Source of the DNA: Lingula anatina
Lineage: Eukaryota; Animalia; Brachiopoda
Assembly: GCA_051362555.1 (NCBI GenBank)
Contig: CM120642.1
Location: 26,598,001-26,662,000, forward strand
Direction: 5' to 3'
Length of the DNA stretch: 64,000 nt
Shown one piece after another: positions 17,901 through 47,463 of the stretch. Within the stretch, counting starts at the first letter, position 1. Each line of letters opens with the position of its first letter. A program made the position numbers and the translations under genes. The notes under the pieces are model-generated. The model searched no databases. It worked only from the letters and a program-made list of their open reading frames with translations, and was not told the origin of the DNA.

Positions 17901-18655
17901 CCGACCCATGGAGCGCAAAAATACTCAATATATAAAAGGCTTGATCGTGAGTACATTATTAGATTGAATTCCTCTTACATACAGTAAATCGCTCTTCATT
18001 ATCATTCCACATTCTCTAAATATTTTTGCAAACAAGCTGTGTCCTTAAAAACCAAGACTGCTAGGACGTCCGATCATAAATGAAAGTGGCTACAGGGGTT
18101 CCTTGCTAGTGCCATTAAGTGTTACGCATCTTGGACATTTGGGCTAGGATGGATGGTATCTGCGTTCCGGCATTATTCATGGAAAACTGCCCTTTCGTAG
18201 CCTACAAACGAAATATAACATGTTCACACGAAAGTATGAAAAGTAATTGAAAGCTTGGAGTAATTGCAACAAAGAACATGTATGTCACTGGTAATTACAC
18301 CCCGTTAATTCTAGAAAGTATTTTGATGTTTCATAGTACTTTGGCTGTTAAGACGATTATTTTATTTTACTTTCTTATATTTCTATAACACAACAAGTTT
18401 TAAAAAGAACTTGATTTAATTTTTAGTGTAACAATTGCACCCTAATTCTAAAATTGCAAGGGCTTGTTAATAATAATATAAAAATGCAATCTAGTTCAGT
18501 TTTATTAAAATTTGTATTCGGACCAGTGAATCCTGACTCAGCTCAGTACGTAATTTTAGGAAAGTTGAGGTCCGAATGGCCAGTATGGTAAAAAGTTTAT
18601 GGCAAAGACTACAACTGAAAAATCATTTTAGTCTATTTCTCTCCCCAATAATACG

Positions 18656-20943
18656 GCTTACCTTTATGGGTTTTCCATCTCAGTGAAACACCATATGCCT
18701 TGGACGCTTCCCCAATGCAGCCACCTTGTAGACAGACCATGGCAGGACTCGCTGGACGCTTCTCCAATGCAGCCACCTCGTAGACAGACCATGGCAGGAC
18801 TCGCTGGACGCTTCTCCAATGCAGCCACCTCGTAGACAGACCATGACAGGACTCGCTGGACGCCTCCCCAGTGCAGATACCTCGTAGACAGACCATGGCA
18901 GGACCCGCTTGGCGCTTCCCCAATGCAGCCCTCTCGTAGACAGACCATGGCAGGACTCGCTGGACGCTCCCCCAATGCAGCCACCTCGTAGACAGACCAT
19001 GGCAGGACTCGCTGACACCAAGGATTGATCGAAGTAGCGTAGATGTGGCCCTCTTCTCCTTGCAGTTGTCAGTGGAAGCTCTATAGAGAATTGTCGCAAT
19101 CGAGTTCTGTTAACAGAAAGAAAAACGGATTAATGACTTTTCCTACTTATGTCAGCACTCTGCATTCAGGCTTACCTTTCAGGGTTTTCCATCTCAGTGA
19201 AACACCACATGCCTTGGACGCTTGCCCCAATGCAGCCACCTCGTCGACAAACTATGTCAGGGCTCGCTGGACGCTTCCCCACTGCAGCAACCTCGTAGAC
19301 GGACCATGGCAGGACTCGTTGGACGCTACCCCAATGCAGCCACCTCGTAGACGGAACATGGCAGGACTCGTTGGACGCTACCCCCAATGTAGCCACCTCG
19401 TTGACAGGATATGGCAGGACTCGAAGTAGCTGAAGCGTAGATGTCGCCTTTTCTCCTTGCCGTTGTCAGTGGGAGCTCTATTGATAATTGCCATCATTGA
19501 GTCCTATTAACAGAAAAAAAAACGGATTAATGACTTTTCCTACCCATGTCAGCGCACTGCATTCAGGCTTACCTGTAAGTGTTTTCCATCTCTGTGTAAT
19601 ACCACATACCTTGGACGCTTCTGCAATGCAGCCACCTCGTAGCAGCCACCTCGTAGACAGACCATGACAGGACTTGCTGGACGTTACCCCAATGCAGCCA
19701 CCTCGAAGACAGTCCATGGCAGGACTCGCTGGACGCTACCCAAATGCAGCCACCTCGTAGACGGGCTATGGCAGGACTTGATGGCACCGAGGCATGATCG
19801 AAGTAGCTGAAGCGTAGATGTGGCCCTCTTCTCCTTGCAGTTGTCAGTGGGAGCTCTATCGAGAGTTGCCATAATCGAGTTCTGTTAAAAGAAAGAAAAA
19901 CGGATTAATGACTTTTCTTACTTATGTCAGCACACTGCATTCAGGCTTACCTGTAAGGGTTTTCCATCGGCCACCTCGTAGCAACCACCTCGTAGACAGA
20001 CCATGGCAGGGCTTGCTGGCGCCCAGGATTGATCGAAGTAGCTGAAGTGTAGAGGTGGCCCTCTTCTCCTTGCAGTTGTCAGTGGGAGAACTATTGAGAG
20101 TCGCCATACTCGAGTTCTGTTAAAAGAAAGAAAAACGGATTAATGACTTTTCCTACTTATGTCAGCACTCTGCATTCAGGCTTACCTGTAAGGGTTTTCC
20201 ATCGGCCACCTCGTAGCAACCACCTCGTAGACAGACCATGGCAGGGCTTGCTGGCACCCAGGATTGATCAAAGTAGCTGAAGTGTAGAAGTGGCCCTCTT
20301 CTCCTTGCAGTTGTCAGTGGGAGCTCTATCGAGAGTCGCCATAATCGAGTTCTGTTAAGAGAAAGAAAAACGGATTAATGACTTTTCCTACTTATGTCAG
20401 CACGCTGCATTCAGGCTTACCTGTAAGGGTTTTCCATCTCAATGAAATACCACATGCCTTGGACGCTTCCCCAATGCAGCCACCTCGTAGACGGACCATG
20501 ACAGGACTTGCTGGACGCTTCTCCAATGCAGCCACCTCGTAGACAGGCTATGGAGGGACTTAATGGCACCAAGGATTGATCGAAGTAGCTGAAGCATAGT
20601 TGTGGACTTTTCTCCTTGCAGTTCTTAGTGGGAGCTCTATCGAGAATTGCCATCATTGAGTCCTGTTAACAGAAAGAAAAACGGATTAATGACTTTTCCT
20701 ACCCATGTCAGCACACTGCATTCAGGCTTACCTGTAAGGGTTTTCCATCGGCCACCTCGTAGCAGCCACCTCGTAGACAGACCATGGCAGGGCTTGCTGG
20801 CACCCAGGATTGATCGAAGTAGCTGAAGTGTAGACGTGACCCTCTTCTCCTTGCAGTTGTCAGTGGGAGCTCTATCGAGAGTCGCCATAATCGAGTTCTG
20901 TTAAAAGAAAGAAAAACGGATTAATGACTTTTCCTACCTATGT
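18656..20943 (-). repeat. Higher-order tandem repeat: 7 exon/intron-like units, each containing 1-6 copies of a 52-bp minisatellite
   Basis: Units at about 18656-19175 (6 monomers), 19176-19572 (4), 19573-19950 (~3), 19951-20185 (1), 20186-20420 (1), 20421-20731 (2), 20732-20943 (1, truncated). Monomer CCCAATGCAGCCACCTCGTAGACAGACCATGGCAGGACTCGCTGGACGCTTC. The constant block reads on the minus strand as AG|GTAAGC ... ttttctttcttttaacAG (~69-nt intron). Confidence 0.9.
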
Positions 20944-23485: not shown

Positions 23486-25708
23486 TCAAAAATCCAAATA
23501 CTTCATAATTCGTTCATAATCCTGCACCTTTTGGTACATCAAAGATAACCTTATGTTCAAGTCAGCGTTGTTTTCATATGTTCTCCCAAACAATGAGAGG
23601 GTTTTATTCATAACTTTAAGTGCTATTACTTCTACCACTGTCACAGCTATGGTGAACGTGGCCGTATCTGCGTACAGTGAGAAAACATTGATTGTCCGAA
23701 GCGCGAGACCCCAGAGCGCCAAACAGCTCAGTACTTTTAAAATTGACCAGAATATTCGAACTCGTAGAGGATGGTACATTTCAGTCATATATTCAAACAG
23801 ATCACGTCTGCAATATGCCATACGATACTGGTCAAAACGGAGATATTTTTCCAGTTGAAATTTCTCTAATGTGGCGATGATGTCTTGTGAGAGGCGTTTG
23901 TAATGGAGAACGGTTGTAGAATACTGGTGCACGAGAAGGAGGGGGAATCCCACAATCATGGTGGCATATTTCATACTCACTTTAGCCTGTAATATCAAAC
24001 CAACCAGGGTCATCGTTAATACGTCTGTGAAAAACATACACACACACAACACGAAGAAAGACAACATGACAAGTGCGATTACATTTCCTACAAAGAAATA
24101 AAATGTTCCGAAAAACCAAACAATTTGACGCACTTTTCGCCAGCGACTTTTCACTGTCTTTTGCACGTACAGCCGCCTGCATTCTTTAAACGAAGCTGAC
24201 AACAAAATCCACATAGTGATGGCCATTGGAGATAGTTGAAGGAGTCCAAAGAGGGATAATGCGACAAAATGTACCGTGTTTATTATTACCTTCGGAAGAA
24301 ACAGCAAAAAGACCAACTTAGAAAACAGTATGGAAACAATGAAGTTTTTAAAATTATGGAAAGACTGACTCGGCGATACGTGCCTTGCTTGGTACCTAAC
24401 AAAACCCCTGTCACATCTGAAGCAATATTTGAAAATCGACGTCCATATATTTAATGAGAGACCACATTTTAGTCGAAAATGAACAATCCGGACAATTTTT
24501 TCAAATAAAGTACTTTCGTGAGAGCCAGGGCAGTGGAACAACACATTGTTGAGTTTTATATCCCAAAAGCCTATAACGATATTGTTAGTAACTGGGAAAT
24601 TTTCCTTAATATTTCTTGCGACACACTGTTGTACTGAAAATGGTAAGAGAAATGTGATAGCAATCACGAGCCAAAGGAACCAAACAATGTAAGCTTGACC
24701 AGAGAGAAGACGGCTTTCCATGATGCAAATACTAACCAAGAAACACAATCTTAAAATTCGACCAGGAAAAGATAACAAATAGCATAGTATTGCGTGGAAA
24801 TTATATGGAGCAATATCTGCCCTCATCCATAGTTTTTCCGACGGAAATTGGGGATCTTTTGAGTTCTTTTCGTCGTTACAATTATTGTTATTGGCAAGGA
24901 TAACATCAAGAGGATTTTCATTAATTGTTTCCACGTCAGTCGTGACTGCATCACAATTTTCCACCTCCTTAACCGTTTCGCTTGGTAAATATCTCAGTAG
25001 TAAGGGTGAAAAATTCCATAACACCAGTGACATGATAAATGCATATAGATAATGCCTCCAAAGATAAACAGTGCTTCGGCCCTTTTGGCCGTAACATTCA
25101 TACATTGGAAATTGAAACGATTCGTGCTTAACCATAGCCTTGAACAATTTAATATAATAACCCATACTTGGATAGTGGATAAACGGAGAAATTTCCCCCA
25201 AAGAGTCTGTGTAATGGCATATAGATGTATCAGTGCCATTGTCATAGTGTTTAACAAATCGATGGACCATGTCGTGTGAAAGTACATACTTGGCAGTAGT
25301 GCAATTTCCCCCACAGACAACATCTAGGTCGAGATAATGTATTCTGTAGTAGAATGTTTGCAGTGAGGCCAGTAAGTGGTTTGGCGGGTACTTGAGAACG
25401 TCTTTGAAACGGTTCCTAATCCATACGAAATGCTGGTAATCACTGATCAAAGGTGCATTTGAGTCGTTGCTATGGTAACTCATGACACGTGCTCGGAAGT
25501 GTACAATCCCGAGCTTGAGGTCATCTGGTTTCAAATGTAAGTTTTTCCACAGGTAATGATGCGTTTTGAGATTATCCGTTGGAAGAACACTCACAAAACA
25601 GTCGTGTCTGCTTTGGTTATCACCCACAGTGTGTGCAAGGAGACATTTGGGGTCAAAAAGGAGCAGGTAAAATAAAAATACAATCATCCATAGTCTTAAT
25701 CGATGCAT
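23486..25708 (-). CDS. Uncharacterised 740-aa single-coding-exon multipass membrane protein with signal peptide and Cys-containing ectodomain
   Basis: 2.2-kb uninterrupted ORF in AT-rich DNA. N-terminal signal-like MHRLRLWMIVFLFYLLLF, ~190-aa ectodomain with N-glycosylation sequons, and roughly 9-11 hydrophobic segments. A splice acceptor (ttttatcatttcAG) just upstream at ~25725 implies a separate 5'UTR exon. Confidence 0.85.
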   Translation of the reverse strand: MHRLRLWMIVFLFYLLLFDPKCLLAHTVGDNQSRHDCFVSVLPTDNLKTHHYLWKNLHLKPDDLKLGIVHFRARVMSYHSNDSNAPLISDYQHFVWIRNRFKDVLKYPPNHLLASLQTFYYRIHYLDLDVVCGGNCTTAKYVLSHDMVHRFVKHYDNGTDTSICHYTDSLGEISPFIHYPSMGYYIKLFKAMVKHESFQFPMYECYGQKGRSTVYLWRHYLYAFIMSLVLWNFSPLLLRYLPSETVKEVENCDAVTTDVETINENPLDVILANNNNCNDEKNSKDPQFPSEKLWMRADIAPYNFHAILCYLLSFPGRILRLCFLVSICIMESRLLSGQAYIVWFLWLVIAITFLLPFSVQQCVARNIKENFPVTNNIVIGFWDIKLNNVLFHCPGSHESTLFEKIVRIVHFRLKCGLSLNIWTSIFKYCFRCDRGFVRYQARHVSPSQSFHNFKNFIVSILFSKLVFLLFLPKVIINTVHFVALSLFGLLQLSPMAITMWILLSASFKECRRLYVQKTVKSRWRKVRQIVWFFGTFYFFVGNVIALVMLSFFVLCVCMFFTDVLTMTLVGLILQAKVSMKYATMIVGFPLLLVHQYSTTVLHYKRLSQDIIATLEKFQLEKYLRFDQYRMAYCRRDLFEYMTEMYHPLRVRIFWSILKVLSCLALWGLALRTINVFSLYADTATFTIAVTVVEVIALKVMNKTLSLFGRTYENNADLNIRLSLMYQKVQDYERIMKYLDF

Positions 25709-28084
25709 TGAAAAACTTGATTCTCTGAAATGATAAAATATCCTTTATAAGTTTTAAAGCCGTAAGTCATGTCGTCATTAAAGCAGAAACAGTCAGCAAT
25801 TTAAATGTCATTATCAAAATTCAATCTACTTTCTAATTTTTCTTTTTGATGACTTCAGTTCGTTAGGCGACATAGTTTCAAAGTTTATAAAATTACTTTT
25901 ATAAGATGAAAAAATGTATTAGTCATCACACATTTAGCATAAAGCTGCCATAATTAGCGTAGCTATTGTCAGTTTTATACGCACATGTATTGCCACTCTT
26001 TTCACAATGTTGATACCACCATTGGTTCAGAAGAATCCGCAGTAAAAATTCTTGCGAATGGAGCAATGGGATTGTCAATTAATGTGAAACAAAATCCGTA
26101 TGAAGAATACGAAAACAAACCCCCAATTTTCGTGTCGAGTAGACCACCGGTGTCACTTACTACGTTTACTTTTGTGTTTTTAATGCTAATATGCTAAAAT
26201 GAAAAAATTGCCTTAAATATTCTAAGCTTCAGCTTTCTCTTTCTTATAAACATGATTATATGTGATATATTTTATCTGTACTTATAATGCTTCGTTAAGT
26301 TTGGGTAAAATGCGAACATTTTTGTCGTTTTTAAGGAAGCGATAGGCAATGCACACGTTTCATTTTGTGTCCATTGTGTATGCTGAATAGGTTTCCGAAA
26401 CAAACTCGCTTACCAAGTAAACTCAGATTGTTTATTCAGGTCGCTATCACCCACGCGAAAAGGAAAATTTAATCTAGCACAATACTCCCTCGGGTTTGTC
26501 AAGGAAGTGATGGGACAAAAAGATATATTTGGTCGAGCCAAAATTCACTATTTAAAACGTCCACGGTTTGTTTTTCTATGTGCTAATACCAATTAAGACC
26601 TTTGGCGTTCATATTAAACCTATACCTTGGAAAAGACCGCTGGTTTTTACGCGTTTTTCTATTTTAGGGGGACCAAAGAGGAACAAATTTCCAAAGAGTC
26701 TACTTTAGAAACCGGTGAAGTAAAAAAAAAAAATAATAATAATAAAAAAATAATAAAAAATAAAGAGAGGGAGAGAGAGAAAGTGAGAGAGAAAGGTGCC
26801 AGTAACAATACCCTCAACTCCATTTTCTTTGTATTGTTTATGACAGATGTGAAAAAAGATTATTTACTCAAAATAAGAAATAAAATGAACAAATTTCCAT
26901 AAGCTGTGACAGCGTTGCGAATTCTTAGCTTTGTTGTTGGTCTTCCATACGCAGCACCATTCGCTATAAACTATCCTACATTCTATGGCAAAGCTTTAAC
27001 AGCATGTTATACAATGCAGCAAAAGATTTCTCTGGTTGTATTAAACACGTACTATAAAAGTTTATTTAACACAACTGCTAAGTTCAAGCTTATTTACACA
27101 GCGTCTATCCTTTTGTGAAGGTTACTTATTAAAGGAATGCGAATAAGACTTATCTCAGCTGTTGAATTGACAGAACTACTGTACTTATTATGTTGTTATT
27201 ATCTAATTCAAATCGTAATTATATTTCACATCTCAAAAATACTAAGTTTGCAGCCATGATGGGGATAAGGAGTGGGGTTTTCACAAAAGAACTGTCAATC
27301 TGCACATATTTTTACAATAATGGGACAATCACTTTTTTCCGTAAAATAAACATATTGTGTAATAATACCTTGCTTTATAACCGAATATTGCATAGGAAAA
27401 AAGTTACGACGATAGAAGCTGGGACAGATGAACAAAACGATAAAAGGCGTGGATAATTGAAGTTTTAAAAAACTAAATAAGTTCACATTCCTAATGAAAT
27501 ACACATAGTTGTTTGTTAACAAAAAAAAACTGCATAATAAGACCATATGCTATATCTTTTAATGAATATTGAATACGAAGATGGCCAATTTATCTCGAGA
27601 AAAAATATATATTATTCAATATCATATTTTTAATATGTAGAACTGCGTAGACGCTGCAGGTGTGTGAGAAATTGTAAAAAAATAATAAAAGTATAAAACT
27701 GAAAAATAAAAGTGCTTTACAGAAATCACCATGCACTAAATTTTGTCTTTGAAGGAGAGGACATGTATGTCTATCCATGGCGTCCATTGCTGCACGAGAT
27801 TCACTAATGCTTGAAAATATGTAGGCCTACCTCTAGTACCTCTAGTAGCTGTAACACCTGTAGCAAGCCTTAGTTTTACTAGCCTCGGTATAATAGCGTG
27901 GCTAAAGTTGATTGCATAATGATCTGCACTGCACGTGGTTCATAAAAAGCTTTTGACACATATGATACCTAGCAACTGTTATTGCCCGACATGTATAAAC
28001 CAAAACTAATACTTCAAATGGTTTTTCTTTTTTTAATGAGTCTGCGTATCAGTCAGACTCAAAACATGTCTATGTGACACTTAA

Positions 28085-28435: not shown

Positions 28436-31400
28436 TTATCCAGAGGCAAACATTGCAATGCTACATATTATGGCCACTACCAGAAATGTTAGGAAAAACA
28501 GACGGTCAATAACGGCAGCCAAAGTGAACCACTCATTCATGGAAGGCCCGCCATGGGTTATGTGCACGTGATCATCTTTGACATCACTTCCGTCTAAACC
28601 GTCGCCATGGTTTTCAAGCTCGTTGAAGGTCACCATCTCGCGATCCCGTGTCGATGATGGGGTAACACGAAGGATTCTACCCAGCACGTTTAGGAAGATC
28701 TGGAAATAAATGATAAAAGAAATGGCATTAACAACGGTCTTTTCGGTCTTATAACAGAAAGTCGTTTCTACTGATGCGCTGAAATTGAAACTCGACATTC
28801 GTAAAAGTCCGCCATAAATGGGACTTCATAGCACATTAACAACTTTAAGCACTTACGGTATGAACCGATCTTTTTTACCCTTATCCGCCACATTGAGAAT
28901 AATTGTAGACACCAGAATTGAAAAGGCGGTCAATAAATGATAAGAGGAATGGCATTTAGGTCTTTTTATGCATGATTCTACTTTAGGCCTGCCCTATAGA
29001 AATGGGGGCAAATGGGACTGAATTCAATTCTTGCATAGGCCTATATACTTACAACTCTTAGCACTTTGGGTACGAAGCGATCTTTTTTACCCTTATCCAC
29101 CACGTTAAGGATAATTGTGGACATCAGAATTGAAAAGGCGGTCAATACCATCGTGGCCACGTAATATAAAGCTAAAATAAAATTGGAAAATAAGGTTAAA
29201 CTGCTGTAATCAAATTTTGTTTAAACTTCAAAACTTAACAATAATTATTTAAGTTAAATTATCAATGTACAAGCTTAGTAATTCCATTCATGGTTCCAAT
29301 TTGTATATAATTCGCATAACTGAAGGTCCAACCAGCAGTTTTCAATGTCCATAGGCCTTTGAGGTCAACATACCAATGATGGGCACATTGTTCGCCGCAA
29401 ACATGTTGTCCTCCAAAATCTCAAGAAGCAAAGTCAGAGACACAAAAATACCAATCCCTGGAATAAGATGCAATACGCAATAATCGTTATGCAGCAACTG
29501 TACAAAACGTCACATACTGTTTTGCTTTAATTGTGGCAAATTTGTCGTGATTCCATTTCGACAATTTAAATATAACTTCGTAGAAAAGCAGACCTGATAG
29601 ACGGGGCTATAAAGAAAGTCGACATTTATTCGATTCAGTCGCCAGCATACTACATGTATGTAGGTGATATGCATGTGCTGATACGGAAAATTTTGTATTC
29701 TGAGTCACAAGTTGAATGTCAACATTTGGTTATGTTGGAAAAGATGACTCCTCTGATACAAAACACGTGACTTTTTATTTAATTTGTTCGATTTTCACTT
29801 TACGCCCGACTTCATACCCAGCTTTAAAGTTACACGTCAGAGACGCAAACCGAGATTTTTCCTTAAAAGTAATGAATATACTATCACAGGAAACAGCTAC
29901 ATTTTAGAAATATTAAAAAAGTAGAAATGCACGTACAGAATAACTTTCTAGTTGAATTTTGACAAAAAGGTCCCAAAAACTTTTGGGTCTATGAATAGAA
30001 TAGTTTCAGTTTACAACTTGGTAGAAGAATGGCACCAGAGAATACTAGCATATTTTCAGCAACATCTAAAAACTAAACAAGGCAATCTTTGTCCGTCAAA
30101 AATTTACTAACCCAAAGTCACTTTCTCTGGAGCACTAGTGGGCAGCAGGAACACCACCGGAGTCAGGAAAGCGAGAAGCACACAGGGTGCAGTGAAGACG
30201 TGCGTGTAGTAAGTGGACCTTCTGCTTATCTTGATGACAATCTGTGCTGCAGGATATTTCTCATCACCCGGTAGTTGCCAATTTTCTTGCGTTCCTTCGA
30301 CACTGTCTATGTTCCATTCTAGGCTTTCCTGTAGAAACTGGGACCTGCCACCGCCCCATGCACCTAATATCTTGATTCCGAGCTGTTAACAAATACATAT
30401 TCAACTTAGAAATTGACTTGTTTTATAATGCAAGCAAACTACATTCTGTCCCGGAGTATATGTCTCCCGCCCTTAACCTTAAGAGAACATGTAATCATTT
30501 ATGAATTTATAAGTACTTATTCAAAATTTCATTTTACGTGAAGTCAAGTGTAAGGAATGTGTTTAACCGTTTACAGAATATGTAGTATTTAAATGGAATA
30601 CTTTAGGAAAATTATGAATGTGGGCCTTCACGAAGTTTTGGTCGATTACTACTCGGAATTTGAAAGAGATACTAAGTAGATTCGTCAAAAATCTCTCTCT
30701 AAATAGGAAACACTTGCCAATGCAGATGTAAAAGAGAAATGCATCAGTAGTTTTGCTTTTTACAGCTTGGTTCTTACTGTAGATAGATATTGTCGTCTTG
30801 CACAAGGAACAATGCTGTAGCTATGGAAAATTGGGTCTATGGCAAATGAATGTCCGACCACATTAGTCATAAGCTTAGTATGTAGGCGGTGGGGGTGGGG
30901 GTAAGAAGAATTCTCCCTGTCACCTTAGCTTACTTTGTTCTGAATAGTAAGCACCTTCCCCAAGAATCAGTATAGGCCATAAATGAAATACCAAAGTTTC
31001 CTTTTCAACCAAGATTATAGTAGACGGCCATATAAACATTTTCGCTTCAGACAAAAAAAGTTAGCATATCTTAAAATGAAATGAAAAAGTTCTAGTTAGT
31101 ATTGCTAGCCTACCTTTGAAGCGTCTTGTCTGTAGGACATAATCCACAGATAACATGTATGACTATCATACGGGAAACGGTACACGTCCAACGTGCAGAA
31201 TGTCCTCATCGTGTAACTGATTCCCCATCGGACCTGGCCATTCGACTGCACGTGCATTTCGTTATTCATATCGTACCATTCTTCAGCTCTAGAATGATGA
31301 AAAATGCTGAGTGTAATAAAGAAACTAAGAAATGCAAAACCTTTTAAAGCAAGCAAATTTGAATAACGTCTTACTTACACCTAATTTTATATTGATAAAA

Positions 31401-31463
31401 TGTTATTTTCATGATAACTGGATTTGTCAGATGATATCAAGTCGGGGCAGTGTGTACGGTATA

Positions 31464-31508
<45 letters not shown>

Positions 31509-34500
31509 AAGCGGTATTACTATAAGGAGAGTTGGAACAATTTCTGCAACCAAATATTTCCTAAGTTTTTTCAGCACGAAAAAAATCCAATCGAAATGTG
31601 TTCACTTTCTTTAACTTTAATATGTTAACTGAAACAAAGCTGCAATAGTCTCAAAGCTGCATCAGAGTTTCGAAGGCGAATATCTTCATCGTAGTCACTT
31701 AAGCTACAATAATATGTCAAAATTATTTCAATTTTATGAAAGTGAGTACCTATTGGCTATCAAAAATGCTGGTTTCCAAACCCTATCACTGGGAACTTCA
31801 GTCTTATTAATCCCTCCAAAATGAGCAGGGTCCCATGCAAGCTCCTCATCCACCCAACGCTTAAAAATGATTAGAAATACAGATATAAATAAAAGAGAAT
31901 TTTGATCGATATTACGCAGAATGTAACACAGTTGAAAATATTGAATAAAAGTCTACCCGTTTTAAGTTTATGCAAAACTTATCTAGCCGTTACAAAGATT
32001 CCCTTTTCAACTGTCCCGCGAAATACTAAATGCTATCGAAAGAATGAACTTTATGTAGTTAGTTCTGATTTTTCATCTGAGAGCAGAACTTAGGTACCTT
32101 CAGCATGAGGAAAGTGGAGACCATGGTGTGAGTTTTAAAATCCTGCAAAAATGAAAGAAACTTAAAACCGACAAAAATAGTTCCGAATACTCAACTGAAA
32201 AAAAAAACGAAGACAAATTGAAAGTAACTTCAAATTAAAGTTGAAATACAATTTATTCTTAGCATTTACTATTGATCGGCAACAATAAAGAATACACACA
32301 CAGATAAAACGCCGAAGAGAACATCCTCACGACAACTCACGAACGCATTATTATTATTATCAAAAAAGATCCAAAAGCCAAAAGCCAAAATTGATATCAT
32401 GAAGTCGTTCATAACCTTTAAAATGTTTGAAATTGCGAAATTGATATTTAGTCTTTAATTAAAAAAAGAGCATCCTAAGTGGCCATAGATTAACGCTTTC
32501 TATATTCACCAAATATTGGCCGCCAATATTTCATTTTTTTACTTTTAATTTACTTATAATCTTGCATACTCACAACATCAGTAACTCGAAGGACTCCTAC
32601 GTACATTCCCACCGTAATCATAGGGTCATTGTAATCGTACGACGTGTTCCTTCTTAGTTTTGGCACGGGCATTACATCAGGAACGTAATCATCCACCAAG
32701 TAATGATATAATCTACGCTCATTTGAAACTTCAACACCCAGACGTTTATCTGAAATGAAATGTAATTGAATGACAAAAAAAAAAGTTTTAAGCAAAATTT
32801 TATAATTTTATCGTCGATAAGTATTTGTTAGCATAAATTGGCATACATACAGTGTAACTGTTAGGTGCACTGGAATGGTCACTAATGTAATATAACGGAT
32901 TCCTTATATTACATAAATGAAATTTTTAAATTTCAAAAATTTCAGATCTTAAAAGATCTGGTAGAATATGAAGCTCAACCAGTATAGTTGTGTAGATCAA
33001 CTGATCAACGCTTAATTAGTAGAAAACACTTTCTCAATATGTATATTATACCACTGTAAAAAAGTTTAATTCAAATAAACGTGGTCAACATTTCTCATCG
33101 ACTAATATACTAATATGACTAATATGGTTATCATCCCAAAGGGTTTTAACCCTTCAGGAGTCGATTGGATTTGACAGTTCTACTCCATCTGATATCTAGT
33201 GAGGAAAAAACAAAGAGTACCAACTTACCCATTCTCAATCGAAATTCAATATTGAAAATGATATTCGGGTAGGGCTCAGGGCAGCATGCGTAAAACTTAT
33301 TTTCTCTCCTTGGTTTTACAGATATAACTTCCCACACCTTGTTCTGCACAAGGTCAGTCATGGAATTCGAATATGGACTGACCAGAACGTTGATCTACAA
33401 TAGAGTAAAAATCCAGTTAACCACCTTGTACAACAGAGAGGCATAGTCGCCCACCGTGTATGCACCACGAGCAAGGGAAAGCATGTCAAAAGGATGATTC
33501 CACGTTCAGGCATTCTAAGTGAAAGGAATAAAAGGTAATTTGCAATAACTATTTGCTTAAGGCAAAAACGTATATGTTCTCTATTGATAAAAAGACATTT
33601 AGGGAACATTTCCTGGTATTCTGTGCAAGAGCTTCAATGCAAATTTAACAGCACAATTAGAATTTCCCATCTGACCTTGGGAAATGGGCCAAAGCTTTAA
33701 GCATTAGGTCAGAAAGCTTAAATCTAAATATTTCTTTTTCTGTCCAATTCGAACCGAAATTTATATAATCACAGGCTAATCTTATATTTTCGGATATGCT
33801 TAAACCTTAAACCTCGTACATGTATATTGCCATAAATTTTATCTTTTGCAGTGCAATGCTTCGTTTTGATAGCTGACAAAAAGTACAAATATAAAAAACG
33901 GCAGCTTTCCCCTTTGTTGGGATTAATGGTCATTACAAGAATTCTATTAGTTTCATGTGTTGTGCAGCACGTGTGATTGAAGGATTCCGAAGCTTCGCTT
34001 GAACAAAATCACCATCCCACTTCCCCTTTGTGGGTGTAAGGCGGCACAAATCAGACCTACGTTCGGCTTGAATAGCAATTAAACACTACTCATAGTATCA
34101 TTATATCGATACATCTCCAGATAGAATCCATAACAGATACCAAAAATAGAATATTTAAGGACAGCCCCATAATCTCTTGCGTACATGCATTCTTTAGGTT
34201 TTCTTGAGGTATAATATGAAACCTTTCGAGGACCAACTTTAACCCCGTCATTAACCCACCTAAAACCCGTCGTGAACCCGCTTTTATCCCATCATGAACT
34301 TACCTGAAACCCGTCGTGAACCCACTTTAACCCCGTCATTAACCTACCTAAAACCCGTCGTGAACCCGCTTTAACCCCGTCATGAACTTACCTGAAACCC
34401 GTCGTGAGCCCAGGATCCAAACTTAATTTCGCAATTACGATTCGAGTAGGTTGCTGATTTGCTGGGATCCAGGTCGCAGTATACAGTATAAGAGTGAGAG

Positions 34501-37500
34501 GGAATGTACAAAACACTCCCATCAGCATAGGCTAATATTTTCAAAATAGACAAGGAGGGTCCATCTTCGGCATCTGACTCACCAGCAACGTGACTGAAAT
34601 AAGGAAATTCGGTCAATGAGCACCATGTAAGGTTGGAAGGAGCGCCATGTGGTCCGGCGGAGTAATATGCTGTAACTGGCCGTGACAGATGACTTTAAAA
34701 CGATTTAAAACGACACGACAAAACAATATCTAAAGTAAATGTAGATCTTACTTGTACACAGAAATATCTGGCATCCATACTTGGTCTTTATCTAGCGTTA
34801 TCTTAGACAGACCCTGGTATTCAGCAGGATTCCAAGCCAAGCGTTCGTCTTTCCACCCCTGCAAAAGGTGACAGCAGAGATTTCCATATAACAGTTATCA
34901 ATAAAATTACTAATCGTCAGTCATTTGTTTGCATGGCGTAATCGTACAATGGTATAGTTGTACGAATATTCACGCATCTGTTGATAGTTTCTTCGTGAAA
35001 ATTCGAAGCGGTCTCTTGGGCAGTCATTATGTTTGTCTGATATTGCGGACCATTACATGTTTAAAAAGAACTGGCGTGTTTAATGTGCATAGGTAAGGAA
35101 TGGCCTATTCTAAAATAAAATTATGTCCGATGCGCGTGGACCTGATAATCGGTATTACAGGCGCGGGTAATTAGAGAAACTACAATTCCAAATTTGGTTG
35201 TCCTTGACAGACCATGTTTTTAAAGGTCTAATTAAGAATCGTATGGGGAAAAGATACATGAAGAAGTAGGGAAACCGTTGTTACCTCCGCCAAGGAGGTT
35301 ATGTTTTCACCCCTGTTTGTCTGTTTGTTTGTTTGTTTGTCATCAACATAACTCAAAAAGTTATGGACCGATTTTGATGAAAGTTTCAGGAACTGTCAGA
35401 AGTGGGCCAAGGAAGAGATGATTAGTTTTTGGTGGTGATCCGGATCAAAAATCAATAATAATAAAAAATCGCTGCCTTGGCGGAGGTCTGCGCTCTCGGA
35501 GTGCTTTTCTAGTTGAGTATTCTTTTTTATTCGAAAGCGACTTACCAGCTGAAGAAAAGCGCGGATAGTTATCTTCCCGCCAACAATATCCTGCAATCGT
35601 AAAAAAAAATATGCAAACACGTGCACACGCATATTGTACATCATTAACATAGACTCAGGTTTCAGATTTGAATTACTTTTCTATATTCATATAGTAAACT
35701 GCATAAAACCTAAGTCAAAAGCACGCTATAGCAAGACGCAATATATGCCTTCATACAACCTACATACAATTTTTTTTCTGTTTTATTCTAGGCTTCCTGT
35801 GCAAAGATGAATACAAAAATTGTTGGCAAGCACATCACATCATCGTCATGCCTGAATATAAAATGGATAGACATTTCTGATTTCTGCTTATAACAAAATG
35901 GTGTGATTTTATAGTAGAAAAAATTAGTGAAGATATAAATATAAATATAAATAAAATGTGCTACTGTACCGAATGCAGTCATGTTCTTTGGGCAAATGGA
36001 CCAACACGTACAAACCTTTCAACATATCGGAGAGCGATACAAATAAATAAAGTTAAAAAAACAAGATCACTTACTACATTGTCAATAGATATCTGACTCA
36101 GTCCAATGGTAACATTAGTAACCGTATTGTTATGATAGCGGATATTTTTGTCGTATGCTTGGTCATCAAAGATATGCTTCATTACCGCCTGCTCCGTGAC
36201 GTTATGAATGATTGCTGTTGCTGGACCTGTGAGGAGATAATAAGAAAAAAAATACCCAGGATAGCATATCTACGATATATATGGACTTTATCATAGCATT
36301 CCAAACTCTGTTGTCAACCCTTCCATCATTGGAAGATCTGCAAAATGATACTTGCTGATGACACGATTTTATTTTTGTATTTTTATTTATTAATTTATTT
36401 ATTATTATCATTATTATTGCAAAACCCTCAGGTGACGGTAAATCAACGTTAATTGACGATTGTTGCGATATAACGTAGTCTTCAGGTGAACTTTTCATCT
36501 GTTGACACCAGTTTGGATTTCATACTTATTTACATTTCCTTGTTACTAATGTATAGTTTCAATACTAGCACATGGATCGGAAGTTTGGGGATTCTCTGAC
36601 AATAGGGATCACGAAAGGTTATGTGTGAAACTTTACGGTATTAGTTAGTGGTTCATTGCTTCACCCTAAGTTTAGTCTTTACGGTATATCAGGTATGGTA
36701 AAAGGATATAAGCATTTAAAGGTTATGGTACTGTCTGATAAATATTCAAACAGAAGAATTATATCATTTTATCGGAGAATACAAATTAAAGGAAATGAGA
36801 TGGTACTCTGGCGTAAGTGAATAATGAAAATGGAGAGAAGCTCTCTGGGGCAATCAAATATAAAATATGTTAAAACTAAGGTAGAATAAATAAAGACTCT
36901 ACATGCCATTTTTCGTGATACACGAATGAATAATTTATCAATTTCACAAAGTAAGTGTTGTTCAGTTTTTTAATTCTTTGCAAATTTCATAATTTTATTT
37001 TCTGCCACAGTGTAAAATCCCCTGCCTCTAATACGATATACGGCTACTCACACATGCCCTGAAATTGTTTGTCCTCATGAGCTATTTGCTTTCTTTATCT
37101 TTCAGTAAATTTACAATGACTGCATTACTTTAGCTTGGCCCGGAAGAATATTTAAAGAACGGTTTATTTATCCCCCAGTCAAGTCAGTCAATTTATTCAT
37201 GTGCTCTTCAGTGCATAGAACCTACTCTTTGTACACGCCAATCGTTTTCTGTGCGTATCGACAATACCCATGATTTATTATTTGTATCAGGTCTAGGCTC
37301 TCAGCTACCATGCGTAAGGTAGGATGAGCAGCAGTAGTGCGTTAAACAACGATCTGATCTCAGAGCACGGAGGTGGTTATAACGTGTTGGGGACTTTAAT
37401 CGAGACGTCGAGAGTGCAAAGAGAATTATTTCTAGGTCCGAAACCATCCCACACGACCACGCCTTAAAATGTTTAATTTCTCACATGTACTATTCTCGCT

Positions 37501-37858
37501 CAATATGAAACCGCTGTCAAGTCGTTGTCTGTACTTAATACTATTAGCCTTAATAACTTGAGTTATCCTCACAACCTATGCATGTGTAATATTCTAATAT
37601 AATAATAGTCTAATATAATAATTTTCTTGTACGAGCGGTCGCATACACTATACGACTCATCTTATTCATTCCTTTTTGCAAAATTCAGTAAAGTTTATTG
37701 CAGAGATTGTTGAGCTCTGCAAGAGAATAGCGTGCGACTTGTGTAATGGTAAACAAGTCAATATATCCATGCGTGTGAGTAAAAAGTCGATACCAAATGT
37801 ACTCACCTGTGCTAACTAGGAAGCACACTATTGCTAGCTGCAGCGGTACCATGGTCAT
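28436..37858 (-). CDS. Cys-loop (nicotinic acetylcholine receptor-like) pentameric ligand-gated ion channel subunit with two tandem extracellular ligand-binding domains; ~650 aa, 14 coding exons
   Basis: Exons 37858-37807 (signal peptide), 36226-36075, 35590-35546, 34858-34752, 34593-34392, 33394-33229 [ECD1: WKDERLAWNP, WMPDISVYN, C-x14-C, KFGSWAHDG, FYACCPEPY]; 32749-32574, 32142-32098, 31859-31750, 31288-31114, 30382-30112 [ECD2: WVDEELAWDP, CTLDVYRFPYDSHTC; M1]; 29457-29374 (M2), 29171-29053 (M3), 28699-28436 (loop, M4 WFTLAAVIDRLFF). All phases are compatible. Confidence 0.9.
28839..28935 (-). pseudogene. Degenerate intronic duplicate of the M3 exon of the channel gene
   Basis: Reads LTAFSILVSTIILNVADKGKKDRFIP*VLKV versus the functional LTAFSILMSTIILNVVDKGKKDRFVPKVLRV. 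In-frame TAA; the original acceptor and 5' part are missing. Confidence 0.75.
31467..31505. repeat. (TA)n microsatellite
   Basis: Direct reading. Confidence 0.9.
34237..34407. repeat. ~44-bp minisatellite (about 4 units) derived from the exon end/5' splice site of an ECD1 exon
   Basis: Repeats of ...AACTTACCTGAAACCCGTCGTGAACCCGCTTTAACCCCGTCAT...; a second intact CAG|GTAAGT donor at 34304, 88 nt beyond the real donor at 34392. Confidence 0.85.
35278..35514. mobile_element. DINE-1/Helentron-associated non-autonomous element (HINE)
   Basis: Subterminal inverted repeats ACCTCCGCCAAGG ... CCTTGGCGGAGGT, internal (GTTT/GTCT)n microsatellite, 3' hairpin GCGCTCTCGGAGTGC followed by TTTTCTAGTT. Confidence 0.75.
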
Positions 37859-42345: not shown

Positions 42346-43464
42346 TCATTTGTAGGGAGAAGAATAATATTCCTCTTCTAACTCGTACAAATCAGCTGCC
42401 ATGTCGTCCCTGAGGAGCAACAGTTTATTGTCACATTCAGTCTGGGCCTGTTTGTACACTTGGGAATTCTTGGTAATTGCTTCATTCACAGAGGTAAAGT
42501 CATTCAGGATGAGAAACTGCTTTATGTCCGAGACGAGCTTCATGAGAGATTCCCCAGCACGTACCTGAAACAAAGATAGGAATATAGTTGTACATAAATG
42601 ATTTAAGTGCAGATTGTACATTAATTCAGAATGCAGTCAATATAAATGCAATACTAAGATTATGCAAATATTTCATTTCATAATTTTTTTATTGTTCAAT
42701 ATATTGTGCAAACAGGAGTGGCAGTGGAAATGCTACATAATTTTTTCCACCCATCGATTTTAAATTTATATCTTTATCATTCATAGACCTTTTCATCTGG
42801 ACTTACAATATTAGCTGCCCTAACTTGCATCTCATACTGGTCCTGCTCAGCTTGGGTAGGTCTTGATATCTGGTTGGTCTCCTCTATCTGGATTGTATAA
42901 AGAAGTTTGGTATTATTTTCACCAATTTGTTCATTTATATAAATTCATTGCAGTAAGAGAGCATTTTACACTAATTATGACCTAAAAGGAATAATGTACA
43001 TTACCTCAATCATATATTACAATGACAGTATGTATTTTATAAAGTCTCTTAAGGTTCATCAGCTTCAAGTGTGCAAACATATAATTTGCAATTTGCACTC
43101 TGGTGAAATTATAACTTTTCAGTGTTATTGGACTTTGAGTAAAAAGCACCAAGAGTGACAACATTTCATAAAGGTCATCAAGCAATTATGATCATCCTTG
43201 TAGTCACAAATAAATATTACAGATTAAATGCAAGAGAGGCCAACGTCTTATAATTGTGCTAAGGTTAATTTTTTTTTTTTTGCTTTTTTTAACATCTGCC
43301 TTCTTTTGACCTATGTGAGGCAATGTCCTTACCCTTGCACTTTTGATCATTTCCATAAAGTTTTCCACCATTGATTTAATGTCATCCTTTAACCTCTTCT
43401 GGTAGGACTTCAGCAAGGCTTCCTTGCTTTGGGGCAGAGCTCTCTGCTGCTGGTTTTGTGACAT
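42346..43464 (-). CDS. MED22: Mediator complex subunit 22 (Surfeit 5)
   Basis: Exons 43464-43333, 42887-42807, 42564-42346. Motifs [76 protein letters not shown]. 5'UTR exon donor at ~43752. Confidence 0.96.
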
Positions 43465-43751
43465 TGCTGTACTTATTACAATAAGTTGTTACCAAATGTC
43501 GGTGATTCTGAAAGAATATATGTTAATTGAATGAAATATTCACCATACAGCCTTTTGAAACAGGTTTTACAGTGCCTACATATCAGTAACAATCAAAGAA
43601 GCTCCACTTACACCGACTTGTCTACAAAGGAAATATTTAATCTAAGCCACGGGAAATGAACGATCTTTATGCAAGGTACACAAATCATATAGTTAAGAGA
43701 TGCATTAACTTTTTTCGTGTTTTGTACAAATAACTGTATATATATCTTACC

Positions 43752-43852
43752 GAATTTTTATCATTTCCCCGGCTAAATGCTACGCGACACTTTACAGGAA
43801 GCACTTGCCTACCCACAATGCCCTCAACTTCCTCTTTCAGGCTAACAAGATG
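43752..43852. promoter_or_regulatory. Compact bidirectional promoter shared by MED22 and RPL7A, with ZNF143(Staf)-like motif and 5' TOP tract
   Basis: MED22 first-exon donor at 43752 (minus strand) and RPL7A ATG at 43850 are only ~100 bp apart. ETS-like CAGGAAG ~43796; TACCCACAATGCCC 43810-43823 (ZNF143 consensus-like); polypyrimidine CTTCCTCTTTC 43828-43838 (TOP/TCT initiator). Confidence 0.75.
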
Positions 43853-46800
43853 GTGGGTGCAATCTCAAAAATATAACATGTGTAAATCCATTGAAATCTC
43901 CCCGAAAAACATAAATCCATCACTAGATCGCACAAGAAAATGTTTATAATAGAATATGCTGTTTATTTATGAGTTCATATTGTCCCTGTTTGTTGTTCAA
44001 TACTGAAAATCGAACACATTGTGCATGTGTCCCCGACTTCATGCAGATAGCGAGCTTCATTGTAAACCCTTTAATGATTTTAGCCGAAACCGAAGAAGGG
44101 CAAGAAGAAGGTAGCCGCTGCGCCCTTAGTGGCAAAGAAGACCGAGCCCAAAAAGGTGGTCAACCCACTTTTTGAGAAGAGGGCCAAGAACTTCGGAATA
44201 GGTAACGGAGCACAGCTTTAAATTGCAGCGTTAGGTTTTCATACATCTCACTACTAGCTTTATTTTATCCCCTAAAAGACAGTTAGAAATAGCAGTAAAC
44301 AAGGTTAAATGGATATTATCCTTTCCAAAAAATATGGTTGCCAACTGCTTTGCTCTTGACAACGACAACTATATTAGTTAAATGTTTGATGTGTGATAAC
44401 TATTGCCAGAGATTACAACTTAAAGAATAATTTGATTGACACACAAATGTGTGATATAAGGTTTTATTTCAACAATGTATTTGAGTATAAAATTAGTGCC
44501 AGTGCTATGAGGAAAAGAAATATTTGCTATCTGAACAGCATGATGTTAAAAAATCTACCACCTAGATCTCTGAGCACAACATGATGACTGAAACCCATAT
44601 TTTAGATGTCATTTTTAACACTAGTACATTTTAGTAGACATCAAGTAACACAATCATTCTTCCCTCCCTAGGTCAAGACATCCAGCCCAAACGTGACTTG
44701 AGTCGCTTTGTAAGATGGCCAAAATACATCCGTCTCCAGAGACAGAAGGCCATCCTCCAGCAGAGACTGAAGGTCCCTCCTTCCATCAACCAGTTTAAAC
44801 AGGCCTTGGACAGGCAGACAGGTATGGTTGTGAACAGGGGTTTCCCCCAGAATTTAGGGTGCATGGAGTCCAAAATGTGCATCTGTAATTTGGTCATGAA
44901 TTTACAGGAATCCCTACCCAAGCAATCCCAACCAACCAATTCGTCATTTCCCCAAAAAATTAGTGAGTCATCCAGCTGTCTTTGGAGGCCAGTGACCCTC
45001 CTCATGACGGCTGAATGGCTGTCTGGGGAAAGCCTTGGTTGTTAATGAAAAATACTGTAAGCATTAGTGGCTTTTTAATTGTGCAAAGCCATATCTGTCT
45101 GTTTTTTGATTCAGTATTGGATTGCCATTATGTGTGGGCTGTTTTACAAAAGAACTTATGTCTGAAAATAGTTTAGACCAGAATTTTTCTCTACTTTGAT
45201 TGAATAAAACGGTGATAGTTCAATTAAATGAAATATTGCACTGGTTTCATGGCTGATGTTTGTGGCTTGTTGTCACTTTATGCAAATGTTCTACTTTGAG
45301 ATAATGTAGGAGATTAGATCAATATCTTGGTTTAAAATCGGGCAGATTCTAAACCCATTTTGTGAAACTAAGATTTGCCTAAATCGGAATTTGTTCTTCT
45401 TCGGTCCAAAATGAATTTGTAGTTATCCACTTTGGAGATGGTGAACCTGTTCTCTCTTTACTAAGTGATGTGCTATAAAGTAGTCGGCTCTCTGTGCAGT
45501 GATGACAGCTGATATTTGCTATCTGATGATTCTGATGTCAAAAAATCTACCACCTAGATCTCTGAGCACAGACAGTTTGATTAATTAAAAAGTCAAATGT
45601 ATGTAATAAAACTTAATATCTGAATTAAGGCATTGGTATATTTAAAGTTGGGCTAATTTGTTTGTGAGATGATGCAAAGTAGTTTTTTAGCCTTTGCAGT
45701 TTCTTCATTTTAAACTTGAAAGATTTTATTTGACACTCCTTGCTGTACTCCCTGTCCCCAATGCCCTTTCGGTAAGGAGACCATGTTTTGTGCACATTGC
45801 TCTAGGCGAGTCTCATTTGACAACCAAAACATTATTTATCCCCAACATTTGTATGTATATTGCAGCCACACAGCTGTTCAGGCTGATGGACAAGTACAGG
45901 CCAGAGACCAAGCAGCAGAGAAAGCAGCGTCTGCAGGCTAGAGCTGAGGAGAGAGTGAAGGGCAAGGACGACACCCCCACCAAACGTCCCCCCGTGGTCA
46001 GGTCTGGGGTGAACACAGTGACCACCCTCATTGAACAGAAGAAGGCACAGCTTGTGGTCATCGCACACGATGTGGAGCCAATTGAAGTGAGTTGAACTTT
46101 TAATGTGCCAGATGTGGTGTTGTAAGCAGTTGTAATGTTGTTGGCTTTGAAGAAATTGTGTTTGCGATGATGTGAAAAGAATTTCTTCACCTGATTACTA
46201 ACATGAAGTTGATTAGACCCTGAGCAAATGCACTTCAGCATGTCTGTATCAGTGAATAGCTTTTCTATATATATGTAACTTTATGTTGAAATTCACACCA
46301 TTATCTTCCAGATTGTCCTGTTCCTCCCAGCATTGTGTCGCAAGATGGCTGTTCCATACTGCATTGTGAAAGGCAAGGCAAGGCTCGGGCGTGTTGTTCA
46401 CAGGAAAACCTGTTCATGTTTAGCATTGACTTTGGTCAACCCGTAAGTTCCATTTTATCCTTCCCCTGTTTCTCTTGCGTTGTTTGTATTAGATGCTTAT
46501 TAGTGGAAGATACAAGCTGTTATTTTTCGAAGTAGTTGAATTATTATTGGATGAAAATATGTAACAAATGACATTTAAAAAATATTTGTGAAGGAAATTA
46601 ATGTGTCAGGCAGTTGGTGATGATGAAGACTTCTTGCCATCATTCGCGGTTTCCACCAGAGACAGTCAGTCTCTCAGACTGTCAGAGATGGTTTTAGTCC
46701 TTCCTTGGAAGTCTGAGCCAACACAAGTTTTGAATTTGTTGAATGCTTTGAGTGTTTTTTTAGATTGATGAAAATAGATAAAGGGGAAAGTAACAAAGAC

Positions 46801-47463
46801 CTAAACTAAAAGCAGATTTAAAAGAATTTTTGATTCATATTTTGTGTATTTTTGAGTATGGAAAATTCATATGTGTTACAGAGAGGACAAATCTGCCCTA
46901 AACAAGTTGATTGATGCTGTGAAGACCAACTTCAATGAGAGAGGCGATGAGGTAGGTCTAAGAATTCAATGCATTTGTAAACTTCAGTTGATATTAAGTT
47001 CTAAAAACTTGTGCTGTACTGCTCTCTTTAATGTCCAAGTGCAGAATTAAAGCTAAATTAAGGATTTAATTGGAAAATTCTTGAAATGTGTTGGCTGTGA
47101 TGAAGACTTTTTGCCACCATTCGCGGTTTCCACCAGAGACGATCTTTTGATTGTTGAAGATGGTCCTAGTCCTTCCTTGGAAGTCTGAGCTAACACATGA
47201 AATCATTTTATCTTTCTCTCAAAGTGATGAAGTCTTTTTTGATTTGTGAATACAAGAAAAGTGGTTCTCAAAATGTGGCATTTCAGATTAAGTTGAGCAT
47301 TTCCCAATGCAGTTACCATTTTTTGTGAAGTATTTCTAAAAAATTTATTTTTTTTCAGATTCGTCGCCATTGGGGAGGTGGAGTCATGGGAGCCAAGTCT
47401 CAAGCCAGAGTGGCTAAAATCGAGAAGGCCAAAGCCAAGGAATTGGCACAGAAAATGGGCTAA
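43850..47463 (+). CDS. RPL7A: 60S ribosomal protein L7a (eL8, Surfeit 3)
   Basis: Exons 43850-43852 (ATG only), 44084-44201, 44672-44821, 45866-46086, 46312-46442, 46882-46951, 47359-47463. Motifs [86 protein letters not shown] at ~47572. Confidence 0.98.
44502..44577 (+). ncRNA. SNORD24: Box C/D snoRNA U24 (SNORD24), copy 1 (RPL7A intron 2)
   Basis: Terminal stem GTGCT/AGCAC; variant box C ATGAGGA; guide ATATTTGCTA + D' (CTGA); C' ATGATG; guide CTACCACCTAGATCT + D box CTGA. Matches the U24 guides against 28S rRNA. Confidence 0.85.
45492..45571 (+). ncRNA. SNORD24: Box C/D snoRNA U24 (SNORD24), copy 2 (RPL7A intron 3)
   Basis: Stem CTGTGC/GCACAG; box C GTGATGA; same two guides as copy 1; box D CTGA. 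Confidence 0.9.
46161..46228 (+). ncRNA. SNORD36: Box C/D snoRNA U36 (SNORD36-like) (RPL7A intron 4)
   Basis: Stem TTTGC/GCAAA; box C ATGATGT; guide AAGAATTTCTTCAC + D' CTGA as in vertebrate U36C (complementary to 28S GUGAAGAAAUUC); box D CTGA. Confidence 0.85.
46613..46722 (+). ncRNA. SNORD14: Box C/D snoRNA U14 (SNORD14), copy 1 (RPL7A intron 5)
   Basis: Box C ATGATGA; domain A CATTCGCGGTTTCCACCAGA; domain B CCTTCCTTGGAAGT + box D CTGA; stem GTTGG/CCAAC. Confidence 0.9.
47086..47198 (+). ncRNA. SNORD14: Box C/D snoRNA U14 (SNORD14), copy 2 (RPL7A intron 6)
   Basis: Long terminal stem ATGTGTTGGCT/AGCTAACACAT; box C GTGATGA; identical domains A and B; box D CTGA. Confidence 0.9.

Follow-up and report, generated by a model that had tools for sequence, protein, structure and literature searches.

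A Lingula anatina receptor gene with two successive extracellular domains that split acetylcholine-site and channel-coupling residues between them

The 64,000-nucleotide stretch of the Lingula anatina genome analyzed here (assembly GCA_051362555.1, contig CM120642.1, positions 26,598,001 to 26,662,000; hereafter the window, whose own numbering is used) contains on its minus strand a Cys-loop receptor gene of 14 exons (37858-28436) whose predicted product carries two complete extracellular domains, ECD1 and ECD2, in succession. Canonical Cys-loop subunits have one such domain per chain, and that rule is broken here by the evidence of hidden Markov model (HMM) profiles, Pfam, and a structural model. 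On the sequence evidence the two-ECD gene is real at the gene level, and what is unusual about it is the clean split of residues between the two domains, which has been found so far only in Lingula. The gene itself is already in RefSeq under an uninformative name, and strings in which two ligand-binding domains (LBDs) precede a transmembrane (TM) region are already tabulated for other animals.

The exon chain and motifs of the two-ECD gene are confirmed. All 13 of its 13 introns are of the GT-AG type, and the spliced coding sequence of 1968 nt consists of 655 codons and a stop, has no internal stop, and predicts a product with the order signal peptide, ECD1, ECD2, and membrane segments M1-M4. 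Pfam recognizes two stretches of PF02931 and one of PF02932 on this product, with PF02931 matches falling in exons from each half of the gene, and a home-made HMM recognizes two full ECDs, M1-M3, and M4; no further copy of the gene was found by HMM within the 64-kb window. Each ECD is coded with a 45-nt exon followed by one of 107 or 110 nt, as had been noticed in a preliminary description of this DNA, and the intron phases are equal in both ECDs; the 45/110-nt pair is what we take to be a pattern of nicotinic acetylcholine receptor (nAChR) genes, and a literature search for it turned up nothing. Exon 1 (37807-37858; 52 coding nt, ending in phase 1) encodes a signal-peptide-like N-terminus, and among 53 ATG-to-phase-1-GT candidates between 38500 and 32750 it alone combines a hydrophobic core with a strong phase-1 donor, as judged with a donor matrix trained on the gene's own other 12 donors.

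The two domains are joined across the 479-nt intron 6 (32750-33228): the phase-1 end of exon 6, at 33229 and with the donor TGG/GTAAGT, splices in frame to 32749, exactly as first described. Across the window the hexamer GTAAGT is met 48 times in 128 kb, a frequency of 0.000375 per base; by our own arithmetic, one of the ten positions that are in phase where strand beta10 ends would carry it by chance in about 0.4% of cases. The absence of a second signal exon from intron 6 also held, as none of its eight ATGs reaches a phase-1 donor. Intron 5 has a signal-like frame at 33513, which was considered as well and rejected for lack of a usable phase-1 donor.

ECD1 is encoded by exons 2 to 6, and its residues were compared with those of 166 other ECDs cut from the best 150 of 9222 phmmer hits, the set to which the counts of sequences below refer. 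Exon 2 (36075-36226) covers helix alpha1 to beta1; exon 3 (35546-35590; 45 nt) the beta1-beta2 loop, with Ile at the Glu45 position, and loop D with Phe80; exon 4 (34752-34858; 107 nt; PF02931, 2e-10) ends in loop A with Tyr118; exon 5 (34392-34593) holds loop E, a 14-residue Cys-loop without the FPxD motif (C158-C173), and loop B with Trp180; and exon 6 (33229-33394) holds loop F, loop C (Tyr221, Cys223-Cys224, Tyr228), and beta10, and ends in the phase-1 donor. The alpha-type site is complete in all three database copies of the protein (Y118, W180, Y221, C223, C224, Y228, and F80 of loop D), and the complementary face has its hydrophobic residues F80, L139, and I149. The coupling residues are gone: ECD1 has neither the Cys-loop Pro, present in 166/166 other ECDs, nor the Cys-loop Asp, present in 164/166; the pre-M1 Arg found in 154/166 is Leu239; and the beta1-beta2 and beta9 Glu residues, each found in 126/166, are both missing. 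The Cys-loop is hydrophilic, ranking among the top 8 of 171 loops, and of 59 ECDs with a full alpha signature only the three Lingula ECD1 domains lack FPxD. The Cys-loop Pro is described as the only absolutely conserved residue, and Pro, Asp, and Arg are placed where ECD and membrane meet, in PMC4795631. The separation of ECD1 from any membrane domain has thus probably lasted long enough for the coupling set to disappear, and this sets the case apart from one in which two intact genes merged recently.

ECD2 presents, for the most part, the complement of this pattern. Exon 7 (32574-32749), entered through a phase-1 acceptor, encodes the linker 242-249, ECD2 alpha1, a 9-residue insertion, and beta1; exon 8 (32098-32142; 45 nt) the beta1-beta2 loop and loop D; exon 9 (31750-31859; 110 nt; PF02931, 3e-9) the region of loop A; exon 10 (31114-31288; PF02931, 1e-11) the Cys-loop and loop B; and exon 11 (30112-30382) loops F and C, the pre-M1 Arg, M1, and the start of M2. 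The coupling set consists of FPYD between C383 and C397, the beta9 Glu, and Arg464 before M1, while the Glu45 position is taken by Phe302; R464 and P476 of M1 are invariant over 83 alignment rows. The acetylcholine box is absent from both faces, with A350 in place of the loop-A Tyr, Y404 in loop B, no vicinal Cys pair in loop C, and L312 in loop D. The pocket still retains the aromatics Y404, W445, and Y453, and it is remodelled rather than empty. The alpha1-beta1 span is 39 residues long as a result of the 9-residue insertion, compared with a mode of 30 in 96/152 cases, and 39 is reached in 7/152, three of which are the ECD2 copies themselves. The preliminary description had assigned to ECD1 the principal-face residues of loops A, B, and C and a hydrophilic Cys-loop without FPxD, and to ECD2 an FPxD Cys-loop with the loop-A Tyr, loop-B Trp, and vicinal cysteines missing, and all of this is borne out. 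In the case of its further proposal of a division of labor, the residue split stands, and is wider than was noted, since it includes the beta1-beta2 Glu, beta9 Glu, and pre-M1 Arg of ECD1 and the complementary face of ECD2; the functional half of the proposal is taken up below as a reading.

Exon 11 also contributes the Glu at -1' of M2, and exon 12 (29374-29457) continues with Val 9', Glu 16', Glu 19', and Asp 20' and the M2-M3 loop; Glu 16' recurs in 1/168 other segments. A Glu at -1' denotes a cation-type pore by established rule, and the pore is accordingly predicted to be of that type. The Pro at 23' of the M2-M3 loop, present in 159/168 other segments, is replaced by Phe520, and this Pro is typical but not absolute, at 88%, in Table 1 of PMC4795631. 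Exon 13 (29053-29171) encodes M3 and the start of a short intracellular loop, and exon 14 (28436-28699) the rest of that loop, M4, and the stop. Part of exon 13 is copied within intron 13 (about 28839-28935, minus strand): the 97-nt copy is about 87% identical, has an in-frame stop, lacks the upstream part with the acceptor, and is apparently a dead local duplication. In intron 5, a 44/88-nt tandem repeat (34217-34412) consists of several copies of the 3' end of exon 5 with its donor, and could provide decoy donors.

A search with exon 5 retrieved one protein cluster of three members, each of 655 residues. XP_013419118.2 (RefSeq, Lingula anatina) differs from the window model at 7/655 positions and represents the same gene, whereas the RefSeq protein XP_013409349.1 differs at 41 and the third record at 46. 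The junction is identical in all three proteins, two of which are RefSeq models, and there is no isoform suffix in their names; the RefSeq name of the receptor product is "beta-3". XP_013409349.1 is unlikely to be a mere allele, as its protein difference is 6.3% against 1.1% for the matching model and a reported DNA heterozygosity of 1.6%, and the gene probably has at least one paralogue in Lingula. Between the window model and XP_013409349.1, 24/219 residues differ in ECD1, 12/223 in ECD2, and 4/191 in the membrane part. The channel had been called degenerate in the preliminary description, and this does not hold: the pore region is the part least different between copies, so the idea of a decaying channel was rejected (4/191 against 24/219 in ECD1, p 0.0003). 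Within the ECDs, exon 7, with the linker and the top of ECD2, differs at 1/59 positions compared with 11/46 in the matching part of exon 2, where the copies differ most (p 0.0004, post hoc), and loop C holds 4/12 of the between-copy differences of ECD2 (p 0.005, post hoc). The conservation of exon 7 and the long top loop would fit an ECD2 whose top is covered, and gene conversion could yield the same pattern.

In an AlphaFold model built from a 26-row alignment both ECDs and the four helices fold, with a mean pLDDT of 73 and ECD values mostly of 70-90. Matches in fold searches cover residues 249-655 only, no listed solved chain spans both ECDs (best TM score by query 0.51), and a structure-cluster search with the whole protein returned single-ECD clusters only. 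The search for the LBD-LBD-TM architecture proposed in the preliminary description was answered within the 152 proteins of the phmmer set, where the order ECD-ECD-M1-M3-M4 occurs only in the three Lingula sequences. Three further proteins there have two ECD matches in a row, which trace to a near-identical repeat, a partial domain, and a split domain; the other multi-ECD proteins are mostly ECD-TM-ECD-TM strings, and none of the multi-ECD proteins outside Lingula has a first ECD without the Cys-loop Pro. In the literature, the only paper found on two-ECD receptors was PMC6896357, with most subscription papers outside the search, and no Lingula paper was among the matches listed; the available text of the Lingula genome papers PMC4595640 and PMC13121700 and some of their supplements gave no match for receptor terms.

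The exon pattern was read at first as a sign of tandem duplication or fusion, and either may apply. ECD1 and ECD2 share 23% identity, and they lie apart, on long branches, in a FastTree of 172 ECDs and in a quick IQ-TREE of 44 of them; a tree that joins them is 2.4 log units higher and is not rejected (p-AU 0.56). These trees exclude ECDs with fewer than 165 aligned residues and contain no sequences of acetylcholine-binding proteins (AChBPs), Alpo4, or chemotactile receptors. Since the trees do not separate them, both a shown duplication and a shown fusion of two lineages were dropped. ECD2 groups with proteins P0031 and P0035 (SH-aLRT 96, quick tree).

We tentatively favor, at somewhat less than even chances, an uncleaved two-storey pentamer in which an outer AChBP-like ring captures acetylcholine or nicotinic compounds and modulates the receptor, while an inner orphan ring gates a cation pore. 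The main transcript would join exon 6 to exon 7, and the 8-9-residue linker would bar ECD1 from the ring of its own ECD2, leaving it above or outside. An ECD ring is about 60 Å high. In an ECD the basal face carries the C-terminus and Cys-loop, and the N-terminus lies apically (PMC3423370). Because nine residues cannot span the height of the ring, and because an ECD ends basally and starts apically, ECD1 should not sit in the ring of its own ECD2. Five tethered ECD1 domains, with both faces intact, could then form a closed ring of the AChBP kind, in which there would be five homomeric sites. With every contact between ECD and membrane lost, ECD1 would be cut off from the pore. Anchored to the membrane, it would serve as an AChBP for the capture of acetylcholine or nicotinic toxins, and it would tune the channel by way of the ECD2 top, like the accessory domains of DeCLIC. 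The remodelled aromatic pocket of ECD2 may in turn answer a ligand other than acetylcholine, as the orphan and chemotactile receptors of lophotrochozoans do.

A number of observations weigh against this uncleaved pentamer, and the competing explanations draw on them. The missing coupling residues are just as compatible with a soluble ECD1, and the replacement of Glu45 and of the M2-M3 Pro, each by Phe, may mean that the channel half does not gate normally. The database records are gene predictions, and such models may lean on each other; no orthologue outside Lingula is present in the best 150 of 9222 hits; and the AlphaFold pTM of 0.48, with linker 242-249 below pLDDT 50, means that the position of ECD1 on ECD2 is not fixed. 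The gene could also yield separate products, a secreted AChBP-like protein and a single-ECD orphan channel, with the fused form minor or absent, and this we consider unlikely. Skipping from exon 1 to exon 7 leaves an open frame for a 431-residue single-ECD subunit, with exons 2-6 forming a symmetric phase-1 cassette, and retention of intron 6 adds a read-through tail (33146-33228, minus strand; stop at 33148-33146) that would yield a 268-residue soluble ECD1. A soluble AChBP ending near 33146 had been the alternative in the preliminary description, and the stop is indeed there; the signal exon that it supposed for ECD2 is not needed, because exons 1 and 7 are phase-compatible. Four other acceptors in intron 6 (33188, 33053, 33010, 32957) are as strong as 32749, scoring 7.6-8.4 against 7.9 on a small 12-site matrix, and all lead to stops, so that use of an early one would also yield the secreted AChBP-like protein; the Cys-loop exon of ECD1 has AChBPs among its best solved matches; and an ATTAAA lies 76 nt beyond the read-through stop, a poly(A) hexamer of which chance alone would supply about 1.1 per 400 nt. 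Against separate products stand the three of three database proteins that are fused and lack an isoform suffix, where another Lingula nAChR has X1-X3, and the extra top loop of ECD2 with its conservation, which would go unexplained. No short ECD1 protein was found either, in weak word-indexed searches of proteins of 30-359 residues (0/43 candidates) or 119-2000 residues (1/12). Such searches with ECD1 gave only the Lingula cluster (1/886 candidates) or nothing (0/43), and they are insensitive, because alpha7, a clear homologue, was not retrieved.

If the fused precursor is really made, as is likely when the readings that include it are taken jointly, it may still be processed, read out, or assembled otherwise. 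Proprotein convertases prefer Lys-Arg, and the dibasic pair Lys243-Arg244, another point that counts against the uncleaved form, lies in the flexible, low-confidence linker of all copies. A cut behind it would set free an AChBP-like pentamer in soluble form and leave an orphan channel of normal length, the two in a fixed 1:1 ratio; about five residues would then precede ECD2 alpha1, like the N-terminus of a mature receptor. We regard such a polyprotein as quite unlikely: the furin motif has Arg at P4 and this site does not, a dibasic pair would be met within nine residues in some 5-10% of cases by our own estimate, and the rings on either side may shield so short a linker. It seems about as doubtful, and if anything slightly more so, that acetylcholine bound in the outer ring signals across a rigid ECD1-ECD2 interface to an inner ring that is a pure transducer opening the pore. 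The complementary split, with ligand residues lost from both faces of ECD2, and the conserved and lengthened ECD2 top would suit this relay, and DeCLIC's N-terminal domains are reported to alter gating kinetics in PMC9897478. The model, however, shows no defined ECD1-ECD2 interface, three aromatics stay in the ECD2 pocket, the concentration of differences in ECD2 loop C may reflect ligand tuning or relaxed constraint, and no precedent for force transmitted through two ECDs was found. More broadly, an arrangement of two stacked rings in which acetylcholine bound in the AChBP-like outer one controls the pore through an inner one whose pocket is different, whether as a relay or as a two-ligand coincidence detector with ten sites, strikes us as rather unlikely. 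It is improbable that the fused chain joins ordinary subunits as a non-alpha partner, with one or two ECD1 domains per pentamer and no ring: ECD2 lacks the alpha signature and ordinary nAChRs with related motifs also occur in Lingula (P0019), but both site faces of ECD1 are kept in all copies and ECD2 is without beta-type complementary-face residues. Least credible of all is that gene prediction has joined an AChBP-like gene to a receptor gene starting from the ATG at 33232. Tandem nAChR genes are often merged, most multi-ECD matches being ECD-TM-ECD-TM, and this ATG, the last codon of exon 6, opens a 9-residue hydrophobic run and is a possible internal start, which again does not favor the fused chain. 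Its phase-1 donors, however, are weak (-1.4 and -1.7 against 5.2-12.1), the hydrophobic run is read from a T-rich stretch, and the 479-nt intron has no signal exon; only by coincidence would the domain then end on a consensus donor in the right phase, and two copies share the junction.

The question at the heart of this receptor family is how ligand binding leads to gating, and no feature of the family is more conserved than the coupling residues (PMC4795631). A single chain in which a domain with the binding set and none of the coupling residues stands above one that has most of those residues and no acetylcholine site would amount to a natural dissection of the two. The gene is relevant, too, to the origin of AChBPs from receptor domains, and it suggests that among the LBD-LBD-TM models, which are usually set aside as merges made in annotation, a few are real. 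If its products are instead a soluble binding protein and a separate orphan channel, the gene would still offer an unusual route of co-production.

Elsewhere in the window, a 752-codon stop-free frame (23489-25744, minus strand) that includes several hydrophobic stretches and matches no Pfam family at E 0.05 lies 2.7 kb downstream of the receptor gene. At 42349-46228 a MED22 gene (Surfeit 5, minus strand, PF06179) and an RPL7A-like gene (plus strand, PF01248) form a head-to-head pair, an arrangement that resembles the vertebrate Surfeit locus; the RPL7A-like region includes two SNORD24 and a SNORD36, and two SNORD14 (U14) matches above the Rfam cut-off lie in or after that gene (46615-46720 and 47092-47192, plus strand), U14 being hosted by other genes in vertebrates. 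The remaining features are a RING-variant (MARCH-like) ligase exon (5973-6464, plus strand), a PRP38-family gene with an RS-rich tail (8965-13710, minus strand), a GC-richer repeat of several degenerate copies with long frames on both strands (18636-20900), and a Myb/SANT-like DNA-binding domain (57914-58339, minus strand; PF13873) of a kind that sits beside Harbinger-type transposases.

The domain order of the Lingula gene is the same as that of the LBD-LBD-NTM(-TM) models tabulated by Jiao et al. 2019, of which 10 + 7, thus 17 in all, are given for five bivalves, Capitella, and Exaiptasia (PMC6896357, Table 1), so that multi-domain models do exist in annotations, as had been supposed. Those strings are automatic and, in the available text, are not individually discussed, and Lingula does not appear there; a human LBD-LBD-NTM-NTM string is also listed, which suggests that some such strings are split-domain artefacts. 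In the proteins Argopecten XP_069122364.1, Pinctada KAK3097591.1, and Mactra KAL4235547.1, the repeats are near-identical or part of M1 is retained, and the first domain, unlike ECD1, has FPxD. The protein of Mactra antiquata (KAL4235547.1) has 987 residues and four ECDs, the first three each with one third of the M1-M3 profile, and is either a repeat array or an assembly artefact.

The AChBPs (Aplysia, Lymnaea, Bulinus, Biomphalaria; ACCBP) are like ECD1 in having the aromatic box, the vicinal cysteines, and a Cys-loop without FPxD, but they are secreted single domains, whereas ECD1 runs in frame into a channel. Exon 5 has AChBP entries among its best solved matches (E 1e-5 to 1e-4), while ECD1 as a whole scores 96-97 bits against alpha7 and its chimeras and 85-88 bits against the Aplysia AChBP entries, and it is probably about equally distant from the two; the AChBP character first claimed for it is upheld as a likeness, which need not mean descent from the molluscan/annelid AChBP group. 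AChBP-type rings are able to form di-pentamers, and the snail AChBP gene has only intron 1 in common with nAChR genes (both from PMC3423370), while the intron phases of ECD1 are those of ECD2.

For ECD2 and the pore the best solved sequence match is Alpo4 of Alvinella pompejana (PDB 8BX5; E 9e-53, with 34% identity when structurally aligned), an orphan without vicinal cysteines that acetylcholine does not gate (PMC10338036). Like Alpo4 and the cephalopod receptors CRT1/CRB1, ECD2 has lost the vicinal cysteines and has an altered pocket, a likeness of residues alone that does not imply membership of a clade; Alpo4 has one ECD and, unlike the Lingula ECD2, retains the loop-B Trp and key aromatics. 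The best full-length fold match is to alpha7-type nAChR (TM 0.80 by target, Z 31; residues 249-655 only), in which binding and coupling residues reside in one domain, and whose two faces of a homomeric site are both present in ECD1. Finally, DeCLIC (PDB 6V4A) is a pentameric channel whose extra N-terminal domains affect gating kinetics, and PMC9897478 states that such domains are not observed in eukaryotic homologues. DeCLIC is bacterial, and its extra domains are jelly-roll lobes beside the ECD, while the extra domain in Lingula is itself a PF02931 ECD. If the reading with stacked rings is true, the Lingula receptor would be the first in its family from a eukaryote to have an ordered extra storey at the N-terminus, and one in which binding is naturally separated from gating.

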